Source of the DNA: Escherichia coli
GTDB taxonomy: Bacteria; Pseudomonadota; Gammaproteobacteria; Enterobacterales; Enterobacteriaceae
Direction: 5' to 3' (one strand)
NCBI RefSeq assembly: GCF_003334385.1
Contig: NZ_QOWN01000009.1
Length of the DNA stretch: 64,000 nt
Positions within the stretch are counted from its first letter, which is position 1; each line of letters opens with the position of its first letter. A program made the translations under genes and the position numbers. The notes under the pieces are model-generated. The model made no database searches and had not been told where the DNA came from. It saw only the letters and a program-made list of their open reading frames with translations. Below are positions 36,920-40,145 of the stretch, piece by piece.

Positions 36920-37204
36920 TCAGGGCAAGCCGAAGGTAGCCTTTTTTATTTCGTAATCCTGTAGATATTCTTCCAGCGGTTTTGCCGTTCCCAGAGAATG
37001 AATTTCACCACTGTCTTTATCAATAATAAAAGGTGCGTTACCAGCTAAGCGCGCGGCCTCATCTCCAGTTTCGAGAAATTCTCGTGCTTCGAAACAGAAA
37101 TACCAGCCCTGGCTAAAGCGTCCATGTAGAGTAATGACGACCGGGAGATCTGCATCATCAAGGTAATGGTTCGCTTTCGCGAATGCGTCGTGATAAGTAA
37201 TCAT
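36920..37204 (-). CDS. yrhB: Small heat-stable chaperone-like protein YrhB
   Basis: 94 aa ORF MITYHDAFAKANHYLDDADLPVVITLHGRFSQGWYFCFEAREF...; recognised from memory as YrhB. Confidence 0.8.
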   Translation of the reverse strand: MITYHDAFAKANHYLDDADLPVVITLHGRFSQGWYFCFEAREFLETGDEAARLAGNAPFIIDKDSGEIHSLGTAKPLEEYLQDYEIKKATFGLP

Positions 37205-37653
37205 AATTATAATAAATATTATTGTTGAGTGTTATATTATTATTCCTGTGTGATACATTGAGCAAAGACGCGTTCATCTTCGTCAAAGATATTATTAAAT
37301 GCTGGTTTTGAAAAAAGTTCATCGGATAAGATATAGTCACGAAATAAGTATCTGCTAATATTTTATGATTTCTTTTTCAGAACGTCGAACGGGATTTTCT
37401 TATTTAAGATATCAGAATCTTATGATTCGGGTAAAATTCTAAATAAATCAACATGTCATTAAAATCATCATAGCCATTAGCTATTTCGGCTAAAATAGAG
37501 ACTACATGTCTTCGGTCCATCTCACTTAAGGAGTGTAGTTCCGTTGTAAGTTTTTCCATAGCTTGCACTGCTAAATTTCGAACAAGGAATTTTCTGCTGG
37601 TAATCTCTAAAAAGATGGCATGGTTTACAATGATTTTTGTTTCCTTTTGATTA

Positions 37654-38148
37654 TTATGAACAACTGTCCATGATTTCGTTTAAGAATGAAGAGAAATCAC
37701 TAAACGAACTGAATATATTTTCTGTGTCAATATTATCTCTAATTTCAAAAAAGTTACTTTTAATGTCATAAGTAAATATTGAAATGCTATAATCCCCGAT
37801 CACTAACCGTTCTTGTAGATCAGGGTTTATGAAATCATCATTATTTCTATAAAATTCATTTACGGCAAAAAGGTTTTTAACTGAAGGTTCTGGAATCGAG
37901 AGGCTAAATAATCGTAATCCATTAACTTCGAATCCATCCATTGCTCTTAAAAAAGTAAGATAATCAGGTTGATTCTTAAAAAGAATACTAACTTCATTAC
38001 ATAACTTCTCCAGGCAATTAGTTGAATTAGAATTAAATTCTATTTGGATTATACTTTCAATAAATGATTCCTTGAGCGGTGCTTCAAATGGATAGTCTAA
38101 ATCATTCATCATTTTTATTAATTTATTTATTTGGGTTTTAGTCATCAT
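37654..38148 (-). CDS. yrhA: Candidate immunity protein for the upstream Hcp-HNH toxin (yrhA-like, intact here)
   Basis: 164 aa acidic ORF directly downstream of the toxin gene, with the toxin stop overlapping its ATG (ATGA, 4 nt); AT-rich. Immunity role is inferred from position; the gene name is recalled synteny, not a homology result. Confidence 0.6.
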   Translation of the reverse strand: MMTKTQINKLIKMMNDLDYPFEAPLKESFIESIIQIEFNSNSTNCLEKLCNEVSILFKNQPDYLTFLRAMDGFEVNGLRLFSLSIPEPSVKNLFAVNEFYRNNDDFINPDLQERLVIGDYSISIFTYDIKSNFFEIRDNIDTENIFSSFSDFSSFLNEIMDSCS

Positions 38149-39323
38149 TTTGTGTGGTCCATAATATTTTTCATGGGAGGATAAATTGAGCCAGATGGAA
38201 TGGCCCAGGGAGTGATTTTGCTTTCACCTACTAATATTCCCTTAGCTATTCGTGATTGCATGTTAGTAAAAACTTTATGATATGGTTCGTTTTCGATTAA
38301 TACTAAATTTTCGAAATCATTAGTACCACCATCATCTAGAGATAGTTTATGGTGAACATTATAATTTAGAGGAACATTGCCCTTTCTCATTCTTAAAAGG
38401 TCTTCGGCGTTGAATCTTCCAGATGCTTCGGAGGTTTTTGCAAGTTTGATAAGAAAATTTTTTCTTACAGTTTTATTAAACTCCTTTCGTAAGTTAGCTA
38501 AGTCTTTTGAAGGTCTCTTAATGTATATTATTTCTATTATGTCTATACCATCAAGAAGTTTTTGTTGACCTCTAAGTTTGCCTAAGTAACTATTTATTTC
38601 TGTATATGTATCAACATTAGAACGCTTTGTTAAAAGAATAGATGCTGTTGCTATCGCTATGCCCGCTGTTTTTTCATTTAGTATTTGATCATAGCCTTTT
38701 ATTGCATCTCCACCCAGTTTTTCCGCAGTATCTCTGAATCCTTCAATGTTCCCATTGTATACGCCACCAGCAGCAAGTAGTCTGCCAATAGCTTTGCTGT
38801 TTAACGTTTTGAAACGATTATTTGTTTGGTTTTTTGAATTTGGTAAAAACAAACGGTTATAATTTTCAGGGAGTGCCAAATAGCTGAACTCGGTATTTGC
38901 GATAAGATGTTGACAGAGGATAAATTCATAACTAATAGTTATTGTTTCTGTATCCAGTTGGTTTTCAATGATCTGGTGATGAATAGCCGATAAAAAAGCG
39001 CCTCTTAGTTGTATATAATAATACTTTTCCAATCTACCAAATCTATTTATTCGATAGAAGTCAAATCCCATAAATAATTGTTCATTATTGTTAATGGAAT
39101 TAATAAATAATGGAGTGCTTTTATCAATTAATTTACAAAATGTTATACCATGGAACTGTGAACCAAGCCCCGTATTATTAATATTATTTAAGAGTGAGAA
39201 TGTAAATATTTCATCCTCATGCCCGCTCTGCCAACGATTACCTGTAGACTCAGAAGTCCCACAACCTGCGGAGATGCTTCCTTGTTGTTCTCCCGTTACT
39301 GTCAGGTAAACAATATTACTCAT
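38145..39323 (-). CDS. yhhZ: Hcp-domain protein fused to a C-terminal HNH/His-Me-finger nuclease toxin domain
   Basis: 392 aa ORF; N-terminal about 160 aa is Hcp-like (MSNIVYLTVTGEQQGSISAG...); C-terminus has NVHHKLSLDDGGTNDFENLVLIENEPYHKVF, an HNH-type HH...N...N...H motif; AT-rich. Confidence 0.8.
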   Translation of the reverse strand: MSNIVYLTVTGEQQGSISAGCGTSESTGNRWQSGHEDEIFTFSLLNNINNTGLGSQFHGITFCKLIDKSTPLFINSINNNEQLFMGFDFYRINRFGRLEKYYYIQLRGAFLSAIHHQIIENQLDTETITISYEFILCQHLIANTEFSYLALPENYNRLFLPNSKNQTNNRFKTLNSKAIGRLLAAGGVYNGNIEGFRDTAEKLGGDAIKGYDQILNEKTAGIAIATASILLTKRSNVDTYTEINSYLGKLRGQQKLLDGIDIIEIIYIKRPSKDLANLRKEFNKTVRKNFLIKLAKTSEASGRFNAEDLLRMRKGNVPLNYNVHHKLSLDDGGTNDFENLVLIENEPYHKVFTNMQSRIAKGILVGESKITPWAIPSGSIYPPMKNIMDHTK

Positions 39324-39559
39324 CCCTGAAAAGTCCTTTTATGGCATGCTATTTTATCAATGGCAATATTATGCTTGTTAATTGTTATTTATTTACTCCA
39401 GGAAATTGTAGGCGTATATATTAAAAAATAAAATATTACACTTTAGGAAGTAATTATGAGTTAAATCTCAATATATGTATTGGGCAAATAAATACCTTAA
39501 AGGAAGGTATGTCGATTTTGAATGACACCCTTTTTCCATCTCAGAAAAAGGGCACTATC

Positions 39560-40048
39560 TTACTTCACCCGCGCCATATAATATGCATCGACATATTCAC
39601 CATTACGCAATGCGTACTTCTTACCAGTCCCTTCAATTTCAAAGCCGTATTTTTTATAGACCTTAATTGCCGGGGCGTTATCGACAAACACGGTTAGTTC
39701 AATGCGATCTACCCGCAACCAGTTGTCGCACATTTCAATCATCTCTCGCATCAGGGCGCTGGCGACGCCGCGGTTCTTCCAACGAGAGTCGACACAGATA
39801 CCAAAATCGGCAACATGACTGCGGCGTGGGCGCTGTTGCACGTCAATGGTGAGATGGCCCACGACGTCTCCATCAATACAGGCGACGAGTTGCTTGATGC
39901 CGGGACGATCGGCGAGTCGCTCCTGCCACATATGATCGGAAGGATGAGGCACCTGTAGTGTGTTGCAATACACCTCCGGCTGGGCGTGAATCTGCCTGAT
40001 GGCCTCGTAATCCCGTGTTTCTGCGTGGCGTATTACTATCTCACTCAT
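39560..40048 (-). CDS. yhhY: GNAT-family N-acetyltransferase YhhY
   Basis: Track ORF 39560..40126 trimmed to MSEIVIRHAETRDYEAIRQIHAQPEV..., 162 aa; acetyl-CoA-binding motif RWKNRGVASALM. Confidence 0.9.
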   Translation of the reverse strand: MSEIVIRHAETRDYEAIRQIHAQPEVYCNTLQVPHPSDHMWQERLADRPGIKQLVACIDGDVVGHLTIDVQQRPRRSHVADFGICVDSRWKNRGVASALMREMIEMCDNWLRVDRIELTVFVDNAPAIKVYKKYGFEIEGTGKKYALRNGEYVDAYYMARVK

Positions 40049-40145
40049 TCCTTTGTCCTCTTTGGGGTAAATGTCCCTTTCAACATCATTGACTTTCAAA
40101 TGCGAGTCAAATGCATTTTTTTGCAAAAAGTGTTGGACAAGTGCG

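Follow-up and report, generated by a model that had tools for sequence, protein, structure and literature searches.

[quoted passage not shown] The yhhZ-yrhA pair is thus already known, having been published under the latter name; it carries little weight as a discovery, and its practical value lies in annotation. Our reading is based on domain identities, a catalytic motif, gene arrangement, adjacency, identity to published proteins and a T6SS cluster in the genome of E. coli VR50. For the DNase toxicity of Hcp-ET1, its neutralisation by ETI1 and its dependence on T6SS2 we rely on the literature as relayed by secondary sources. To an earlier note on this DNA, made from the sequence alone, we add that yrhB is probably an orphan immunity gene of the Imm35 type and that no part of the toxin is as conserved as a helical linker.

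The features of the locus are collected in Table 1. The open reading frame (ORF) list bears out the positions and strands that the earlier note gave for the 392-aa and 164-aa ORFs, and the stop codon of the first does overlap the ATG of the second, by 4 bases. The product of the second is acidic, as had been said (pI 4.26). The note's AT-rich islet between ggt and yhhY stands for positions 37205-39559, where GC is 0.28-0.34, against 0.52-0.55 in the flanking ggt and yhhY and 0.53 in the whole window, but does not extend to yrhB, which lies outside the AT-rich core. The product of yrhD had no significant match in NCBIfam, where its top model, at E=0.083, scored 13.4 bits and the cutoff is 137. 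Scanning for consensus promoters and terminators gave counts no higher than in shuffled controls, and we therefore draw no promoter claim from the scan. In published work, promoters yhhZp5/p7 have been predicted for yhhZ, and H-NS-bound 'promoter islands' have been placed inside yhhZ and yrhA in K-12. The locus is probably repressed by H-NS under laboratory conditions, and may be silenced in the source strain as well. At its left end, the window begins within rhsB, a T6SS-associated Rhs element.

Table 1. Features of the yhhZ-yrhA-yrhD-yrhB locus (positions in the window; aa, amino acid residues).
Feature	Position	Strand	Basis
yhhZ (toxin, 392 aa)	38145..39323	-	ORF list; RefSeq annotation
yrhA (= eti1), 164 aa, acidic, predicted SUKH-like immunity protein	37654..38148	-	NCBIfam NF038335, model, conserved adjacency
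ATGA overlap of yhhZ stop and yrhA start	38145..38148	-	read from sequence; translational coupling presumed
yrhD, 51-aa ORF	37404..37559	-	RefSeq 'protein YrhD'
yrhB, 94 aa, Imm35 family	36920..37204	-	Pfam Imm35; GC 0.46
upstream region of yhhZ, presumed promoter region	39324..39559	-	AT-rich, GC 0.30
Hcp (TssD) domain, aa 1-147 of YhhZ	38883..39323	-	TIGR03344, Pfam T6SS_HCP, solved Hcp structures
helical linker or 'pre-toxin' segment, aa 172-232 of YhhZ	38628..38810	-	conservation, model
predicted colicin/pyocin-like HNH (His-Me finger) DNase core, aa 244-383 of YhhZ	38175..38594	-	model, Foldseek, family profile
HNH motif NVHHKLSLDDGGTNDFENLVLIENEPYHKVF, aa 322-352, with H324, H325, N335, N339, H349	38268..38360	-	conservation, Pfam HNH

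The toxin begins with an Hcp domain. The Hcp-like N-terminus proposed from the sequence was recovered by TIGR03344 (NCBIfam, Hcp1 family), which scored 118 bits against a curated cutoff of 58.9, and by Pfam T6SS_HCP (PF05638; E=2.5e-11). It also matched the solved Hcp structures 3he1, 6a2v and 5mxn (E=2e-11 to 3e-9). With its N-terminal ~150 aa above the cutoff of the curated model, YhhZ belongs to the Hcp/TssD family; hexameric rings and T6SS export are literature reports, known through secondary accounts, for a protein 99.7% identical to it. Specialised Hcp proteins (Hcp-ETs) are defined by a toxin-bearing C-terminal extension longer than 60 aa, and YhhZ has 245 aa past its Hcp domain, including the HNH DNase core. 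Hcp-ET2 to ET5 and Usp of uropathogenic E. coli are built on the same plan, with Hcp at the N-terminus, a toxin at the C-terminus and at least one immunity gene behind, but their loci are different and so are their toxin domains (Tle1 lipase, pyocin S3, colicin DNase, papain-like peptidase).

Our assignment of the C-terminal domain as a nuclease is made on profile, model and conservation evidence rather than on the Pfam HNH match (PF01844), which is weak when taken alone (E=0.013 for YhhZ; 58 of 60 family members at E<=0.1, only eight at E<=0.001). A profile of the YhhZ family reached colicin E7 (E=4e-4). The AlphaFold model has a block-mean pLDDT of about 83-97 over most of the core, and its best PDB matches in Foldseek were the DNases of pyocin S2, pyocin AP41 and colicins E7/E9 (prob 1.0). 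In the same model, two strands (160-164 and 179-183 of the C-terminal fragment) and a helix (187-199), all at pLDDT of about 90 or more, make up a predicted beta-beta-alpha-metal fold. Across 137 family representatives clustered at 50% identity, H324, H325, N335 and N339 were invariant and H349 was 99% conserved; all five are present in the window protein, which has the general-base His, structural Asn and metal-ligand His of a His-Me finger nuclease. The earlier note's C-terminal HNH nuclease is upheld by this evidence, with the motif that it singled out, NVHHKLSLDDGGTNDFENLVLIENEPYHKVF, lying within the nuclease core. Published work places YhhZ in His-Me finger group 32. The C-terminal part of the toxin is basic (pI 9.6).

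If the C-terminal domain had lost catalysis, the protein would be a structural or minor variant of Hcp. The Pfam HNH score would fit such a degenerate nuclease, and so would a threonine that apparently stands, in a manual alignment, at what we take to be the position of the third zinc ligand of colicin E7 (presumably H573 in ColE7 numbering). Blondel et al. (2009) also called the HNH domain 'degenerate'. However, the catalytic residues are conserved as described above, the beta-beta-alpha elements are modelled with high confidence, a dedicated immunity gene is conserved beside the toxin, and DNA degradation has been reported in work known through secondary accounts. We therefore regard loss of catalysis as extremely unlikely.

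The nearest structural relatives of the nuclease are similar in fold and distant in sequence. The core of YhhZ shares the HNH/His-Me-finger fold of the colicin E7/E9 and pyocin S2/AP41 DNases, with an aligned block of the form RKxF...G..P...HH...D.GG....N, but in sequence it is no more than about 20-28% identical to them across some 80 aligned residues. The match of YhhZ to Pfam Col-Pyo_DNase (PF21431) was not significant (E=1.9), and we treat the nuclease as related in fold to the Colicin/pyocin DNase family and not as a member of it. The systems also differ in delivery, which would be by Hcp and a T6SS for YhhZ and is by receptor-mediated import for colicins and pyocins, and in immunity: YrhA, at 164 aa and with a predicted SUKH-like alpha+beta fold, is not an Im-type protein, whose form is an 85-aa four-helix protein. 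When carrier domains were read by Pfam on an alignment of 60 representatives, the same nuclease core formed the extreme C-terminus of LXG, PAAR, Rhs and PT-TG proteins, which marks it as a polymorphic-toxin cassette. In the Rhs, PAAR and LXG toxins the core is 40-50% identical and without exception terminal, but these proteins bear other trafficking domains and are without the linker of YhhZ.

The 164-aa ORF, proposed earlier as an immunity candidate, is YrhA: NCBIfam NF038335, the family of its own in which NCBI keeps this protein, scored 120 bits. Its model (pLDDT 75) had as its best PDB match the SMI1/KNR4 protein 3d5p (prob 0.99, TM 0.46/0.55, E=0.023), followed at low probability by Syd and Knr4. 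Pfam SUKH models gave no match on the window YrhA and no significant match in 20 homologues, three of which had weak matches to SUKH_6 (E=0.009-0.1); some sources label YrhA SMI1/KNR4. YrhA thus resembles the SUKH (SMI1/KNR4, Syd) superfamily in its model fold and in its place downstream of a nuclease toxin, but is very divergent in sequence, and on the model we read it as a probable SUKH-like immunity protein. Adjacency points the same way. A YrhA homologue lies directly 3' of the toxin at the same locus in Citrobacter, with a 60 bp gap, and 16 bp after it in Dryocola and Leclercia, at other loci and with a carrier domain that is not Hcp. In all, YrhA directly follows the toxin cassette in four genera. 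The gene therefore adjoins the toxin downstream, is co-oriented with it and moves with the toxin domain across contexts, as the immunity genes of polymorphic toxins do, and the earlier candidacy is strengthened accordingly. Two other resemblances in Citrobacter came to nothing: its small ORFs had no similarity to YrhB, and its 294-aa gene had none to the DUF4225 gene of O157.

The pair in the window is nearly identical to one that has been characterised. The toxin is identical to K-12 YhhZ at 392 of 392 positions and to the orthologue at the same yhhY-ggt locus of E. coli 55989 at 391 of 392, while YrhA is identical to its 55989 orthologue there at 161 of 164. According to reviews and a preprint that relay the work of Ma et al. 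(2017, Virulence 8:1189, PMC5711352), Hcp-ET1/ETI1 of strains 55989, C227-11 and STEC004 consists of an orphan Hcp-HNH gene and a downstream gene; Hcp-ET1 degrades DNA, is neutralised by ETI1 and depends on T6SS2 for delivery. Secondary sources also report T6SS2-dependent killing by Hcp-ET1 in STEC. The strain name, the description and the sequence identity together suggest that Hcp-ET1 is the product of the yhhZ locus. On that footing the yhhY-ggt locus and the architecture are the same as in STEC004, C227-11 and 55989, and one substitution in the toxin and three in YrhA are all of substance that separates the window from the 55989 pair. The earlier note was right that proteins of this class have been described. 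In confining the novelty to the locus and the downstream ORF it nonetheless understated the case, as the exact pair has been characterised, in 55989. Its statement that the downstream gene is interrupted by IS1 in K-12 and intact here was accurate: an IS1E copy breaks the K-12 yrhA after nt 390, whereas yrhA of the window is uninterrupted.

The earlier note also called the module an orphan and reported no T6SS core genes in the window. The window is colinear with the genome of E. coli VR50, the closest one, at 99.9% identity over 64 kb (about 39 differing positions), and the VR50 annotation of this stretch likewise contains no T6SS core genes. Orphan is therefore correct by position, but VR50 has a full T6SS cluster elsewhere, at tRNA-Asp. 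This cluster includes tssA, B, C, E, F, G, H, J, K and M and a TssL-type icmH (IcmH/DotU), together with an Hcp gene, vgrG and an Rhs gene; one of its two tssD genes is split by IS3. A preprint describes the tRNA-Asp (aspV) cluster as the T6SS2 site, and T6SS2 is named as the delivering system in the published work on Hcp-ET1, as far as secondary accounts give it. One preprint, on an O157 strain, reports that its T6SS2 showed no antibacterial activity.

Taken together, these observations suggest how the pair would act. Through its Hcp domain, YhhZ would be built into the Hcp tube of a T6SS whose genes lie at another site in the genome, and contraction of the sheath would drive the tube into a neighbouring bacterium, where the C-terminal colicin/pyocin-like HNH DNase would degrade DNA. 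YrhA would be made from the same transcript, probably by translational coupling through the ATGA stop/start overlap. The acidic YrhA may then bind the basic nuclease domain electrostatically and so protect the producer and its kin.

The pair is present in 3813 of 5426 complete E. coli genomes (about 70%), including K-12 and B, which according to a review have no T6SS. Because the pair is kept in strains without a T6SS, and because the K-12 toxin gene is intact beside a split immunity gene, the gene must owe its wide retention to something other than delivery, and its product may be silent. The locus could then be a silent or defensive remnant, switched off by H-NS and not used for attack, in which yrhA, perhaps with yrhB, is retained as protection against the same toxins from other E. 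coli, or retained neutrally. The biochemical identities would be unchanged and only the selective role would differ. In line with this, K-12 is viable with a toxin gene identical to that of the window and a split immunity gene, both genes hold H-NS-bound promoter islands in that strain, IS1 splits the toxin gene itself in some strains (H43, H45), and an orphan Imm35 gene adjoins. We nevertheless consider a remnant unlikely: the toxin ORF is intact with every catalytic residue present, toxin identity is at least 95% in nearly all carriers among the complete E. coli genomes, in VR50, the closest genome, the T6SS2 site is occupied by a T6SS, and the secondary accounts from STEC ascribe T6SS2-dependent killing to this protein.

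Retention in strains without a T6SS would also fit a nuclease that works independently of secretion. YhhZ/YrhA would in that case be a toxin-antitoxin or abortive-infection nuclease acting in the producer, or would leave by another route, and the Hcp domain would be no more than a scaffold for oligomerisation. YhhZ was put forward by Blondel et al. (2009) as an 'evolved Hcp' unlinked to T6SS function, and the cassette of linker, nuclease and YrhA also occurs with an N-terminal domain, DUF8093, that is not Hcp. Against this, PADLOC matched none of the four proteins of the locus, for which reason we rejected a defence system, and the nuclease core is otherwise found on the classic secretion domains LXG, PAAR and Rhs. 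SUKH proteins, moreover, are typically the immunity proteins of polymorphic toxin systems. With T6SS2-dependent delivery reported as well, in the accounts relayed above, we judge action without a T6SS to be very unlikely and retain a T6SS effector and its immunity protein as the explanation.

The last gene of the locus, yrhB, encodes a protein that matched Pfam Imm35 (PF15567) over the full model (E=4.6e-23, model positions 1-85 of 85). Imm35 has been tied to papain-like Tox-PL1 toxins (Zhang et al., 2012), and papain-like Tox-PL1 or Ntox40 are given as its usual cognate toxins in published work. As no papain-like Tox-PL1 or Ntox40 toxin is encoded between ggt and yhhY, yrhB is probably an orphan Imm35-type immunity gene that is not cognate to the HNH toxin. 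Current labels convey little of this. In RefSeq the toxin goes under 'tssD / tube protein' and YrhA under 'protein YrhA', while the K-12 entry for YrhB reads 'putative heat shock chaperone'. Our results support calling the toxin, more clearly, a T6SS HNH-DNase effector, YrhA a SUKH-like immunity protein and YrhB an Imm35 orphan immunity protein.

The segment between the Hcp domain and the nuclease is the most conserved block of YhhZ, with a mean identity to the window protein of 80% against 57% for the nuclease core. It is modelled as helices with a block-mean pLDDT of about 71-85 over most of its length, lower at its C-terminal end. This linker is limited to proteins of roughly 380 aa that carry the nuclease on Hcp or on the unrelated N-terminal domain DUF8093. 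We rejected DUF8093 as a divergent Hcp at the sequence level (hhalign probability 0.2%), and a PDB profile search with it returned only a weak match to HhaI (E=0.016). The linker could conceivably be a separate functional module, serving for instance in passage of the nuclease across the inner membrane of the target or in docking to the carrier, an idea that we hold to be quite unlikely. If it were true, the versions on DUF8093 would suggest that the toxin can also be delivered by a route that needs no fusion to Hcp.

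The toxin and immunity genes in the ggt–yhhY slot are yhhZ and yrhA, the already known pair described as Hcp-ET1/ETI1, at their usual locus. E. coli 55989, one of the strains of the published pair, has both genes in this slot, with the toxin identical to that of the window at 391 of 392 residues and YrhA at 161 of 164; K-12 YhhZ is identical at all 392. This identity, together with the domains and the conserved gene adjacency described below, supports the earlier note's reading of an Hcp-HNH toxin with its immunity protein. According to reviews and a preprint that relay parts of Ma et al., 2017, Hcp-ET1 breaks down the DNA of its targets, T6SS2 but not T6SS1 delivers it, and ETI1, encoded by the next gene downstream, neutralises it; every functional statement on the pair is thus second-hand, from secondary sources. 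YhhZ had also been described as an 'evolved Hcp' that bears an HNH domain (Blondel et al., 2009), T6SS toxins fused to Hcp1 were noted in 2012 (Zhang et al., 2012), and YhhZ was assigned to His-Me finger group 32 in 2017. The loose ends are a conserved linker within the toxin, carriers with a DUF8093 N-terminus, and the retention of the toxin by strains that lack a T6SS.

The ORF list of the window has the 392-aa and 164-aa ORFs where the earlier note put them, with the translations quoted there. Read on the minus strand, the toxin frame ends in ...ACA AAA TGA and the next frame opens with ATG ATG ACT, giving the proposed stop/start overlap of four bases (ATGA). The AT-rich dip was borne out by measurement: GC is 0.28–0.34 throughout the core, against 0.55 in ggt, 0.52 in yhhY and 0.53 in the window as a whole. 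Because yrhB is intermediate in GC, the AT-rich core begins just past this gene. The 164-aa product is acidic as claimed, with a computed pI of 4.26 versus 9.6 for the basic C-terminal half of the toxin. A family search with yrhD (51 aa) returned no significant match.

Features of the yhhY–ggt slot, its surroundings and the related loci compared with it
Sequence	Feature	Position	Strand	Remark
Window	rhsB, 5' part	1-2771	-	
Window	yrhB	36920-37204	-	94 aa; full-length Imm35 match; GC 0.46
Window	AT-rich core	37205-39559		
Window	yrhA	37654-38148	-	164 aa
Window	yhhZ	38145-39323	-	392 aa
Window	YhhZ linker, aa 172-232	38628-38810	-	helical by model; best-conserved segment
Window	RyhB small RNA	40199-40263	+	
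Window	terminator-like hairpin	40238-40256		at RyhB
L002 (Citrobacter youngae)	294-aa gene and two small ORFs	3671-4555 and 6516-7070		
L007 (K-12 MG1655)	yrhA split by IS1E	2539-3810		
L008 (O157 TW14588)	DUF4225 gene	2317-3228		
L009 (VR50)	T6SS cluster	19339-50000		VR50 244-275 kb
L010 (Dryocola/Leclercia set)	DUF8093 module	3839-5495		
L011 (Dryocola/Leclercia set)	DUF8093 module	3845-5501		
L012 (Dryocola/Leclercia set)	DUF8093 module	1666-3322		

The Hcp-like N-terminus of the toxin was confirmed by HMM search: the Hcp1 family TIGR03344 covers the N-terminal 147 residues at 118 bits (curated cutoff 58.9), and both Pfam T6SS_HCP (E=2.5e-11) and solved Hcp structures (E=2e-11) match the same end. 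The proposed HNH nuclease gave a weak Pfam HNH match from the single sequence (E=0.013), so we tested this call in three further ways, all of which upheld it. A profile of 32 homologues matched the colicin E7 DNase at E=4e-4, with the aligned block RKxF...G..P...HH...D.GG....N. The AlphaFold model of residues 162–392 (mean pLDDT 80, with block means of ~83–97 across most of residues 244–383) places two strands and a helix around the HNH motif, and its top PDB matches are the DNase domains of pyocin S2, pyocin AP41 and colicins E7/E9 (prob 1.0; rmsd 2.4–3.0 Å over ~80 residues). Finally, H324, H325, N335 and N339 do not vary across the family (137 representatives after clustering at 50% identity), H349 is conserved in 99% of them, and the window protein has all five. 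That the nuclease is dead is contradicted by this conservation, and we regard it as highly improbable. The nuclease core is found at the very C-terminal end of 647 representative protein clusters (170–1542 aa), and the N-termini of 60 sampled carriers have LXG, PAAR, Tox-PAAR-like, DUF4280, Rhs/prePAAR, PT-TG or MuF domains; judged by these sequences, the core is a polymorphic-toxin cassette.

YrhA matches NCBIfam NF038335 ('YrhA family') at 120 bits, and a Pfam search with it gave nothing significant. The best match of its predicted structure (pLDDT 75, pTM 0.75) is the SMI1/KNR4 protein 3d5p (prob 0.99), followed at far lower probability by Syd and Knr4; all three belong to the SUKH superfamily, and some database sources already give YrhA the SMI1/KNR4 name. 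Immunity to nuclease toxins is a classic role of SUKH proteins, and Zhang, Iyer and Aravind reportedly described them in 2011 as immunity proteins of such toxins; Zhang et al., 2012 gives further context for this role. In Dryocola and Leclercia, the gene for a protein in which the same linker and HNH nuclease follow an N-terminal Pfam DUF8093 domain is itself followed, after 16 bp, by a YrhA homologue. DUF8093 shows no similarity to Hcp that hhalign could detect (prob 0.2%), and these modules occupy chromosomal sites unrelated to yhhY–ggt. Since the YrhA homologue follows the same nuclease despite a different N-terminus and unrelated loci, YrhA travels with the nuclease and not with Hcp or the locus. 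Among our tests, this comparative adjacency is the strongest evidence for the predicted role of YrhA. DUF8093-carried toxin homologues are also listed for Enterobacter, Franconibacter, Erwinia and Serratia, and the Leclercia module adjoins a CdiA-type (TPS/PT-VENN) toxin gene and the Imm63 and Imm70 genes.

The linker joining the Hcp and nuclease domains of YhhZ has the highest identity of the protein, 80% versus 57% in the nuclease core, and contains its most hydrophobic 15-mer, TAGIAIATASILLTK. It is restricted to the ~380-aa versions carried by Hcp or DUF8093 and is absent from the LXG, PAAR and Rhs carriers of the same nuclease.

Inspection of the whole 64-kb window found no T6SS core genes, as the earlier note had said. 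Its description of the module as an orphan holds at this scale, but the closest genome, E. coli VR50, has a full T6SS cluster beside tRNA-Asp. VR50 is colinear with the window across all 64 kb at 99.9% identity with ~39 differences, and on sequence grounds the source of the window is closely related to VR50 but is another strain. The cluster comprises tssA, B, C, E, F, G, H, J, K and M, a TssL-type gene annotated icmH, tagH, vasI, a VasL-domain gene, an Hcp gene and a divergent tssD-vgrG-Rhs arm; an IS3-family element splits one of its two tssD genes. It agrees in position and two-operon layout with a preprint's description of E. coli T6SS2, so by analogy with VR50 a delivery machine of the type in the literature is probably available to the source strain. 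By the same colinearity, the window starts inside rhsB, in its 5' part; this Rhs element, ~34 kb from yhhZ, is another polymorphic toxin gene associated with T6SS.

We consider it very probable that YhhZ is a T6SS2-fired DNase with co-translated YrhA as its immunity protein. YhhZ would join the Hcp tube of T6SS2 and, on firing, enter neighbouring bacteria, whose DNA its HNH domain would cut; YrhA would be translated off the yhhZ mRNA via the ATGA overlap and keep the nuclease inactive in the producing cell and its kin, perhaps by binding of the acidic protein to the basic one. The domains, intact motif, gene arrangement, conserved adjacency and identity to the published pair were observed here, and toxicity, immunity and T6SS2 dependence are as reported in the literature. 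A T6SS-independent role, to which PADLOC lends no support, seems improbable. Somewhat less unlikely, though still doubtful, is a rival that concerns role and not identity, in which the module is silent or kept chiefly for defence. K-12 and B keep the pair and are both said by a review to be without any T6SS, and in K-12 yhhZ and yrhA are among the 'promoter islands' bound by H-NS; the module may be silenced in the source strain as well. As the earlier note said, the downstream gene is split in K-12 and intact in the window: IS1E interrupts yrhA after nt 390, beside a tolerated toxin gene identical to that of the window. This tolerance of an intact DNase gene may be due to silencing or to some remaining activity of YrhA(1-130). 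Delivery by T6SS2 with YrhA as immunity remains our preferred reading.

Of the 5426 complete E. coli genomes, 3758 have the 3.4-kb stretch at a coverage of at least 80%. The toxin–immunity segment taken by itself occurs in 3813, chromosomal in every case, mostly single-copy and at least 95% identical except in one genome. In Citrobacter youngae, the yhhY–ggt slot likewise contains a gene for an Hcp toxin together with a YrhA homologue; the insertion is therefore old and no recent islet. The slot is variable between strains and genera: in O157 strain TW14588 a DUF4225 gene replaces the whole module. Other E. coli strains retain yrhB alone, some carry IS1 inside the toxin gene, and Citrobacter youngae has an additional 294-aa gene and two small ORFs, unrelated to YrhB or the DUF4225 protein. 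YrhB, annotated in K-12 as a 'putative heat shock chaperone', matches Imm35 over its full length (Pfam E=4.6e-23), a predicted peptidase inhibitor tied to papain-like Tox-PL1 toxins (Zhang et al., 2012). With this identity and no such toxin in the slot, yrhB looks like an orphan immunity gene. Between yhhY and yhhX lies the RyhB small RNA (Rfam RF00057, 83 bits), with a terminator-like hairpin.
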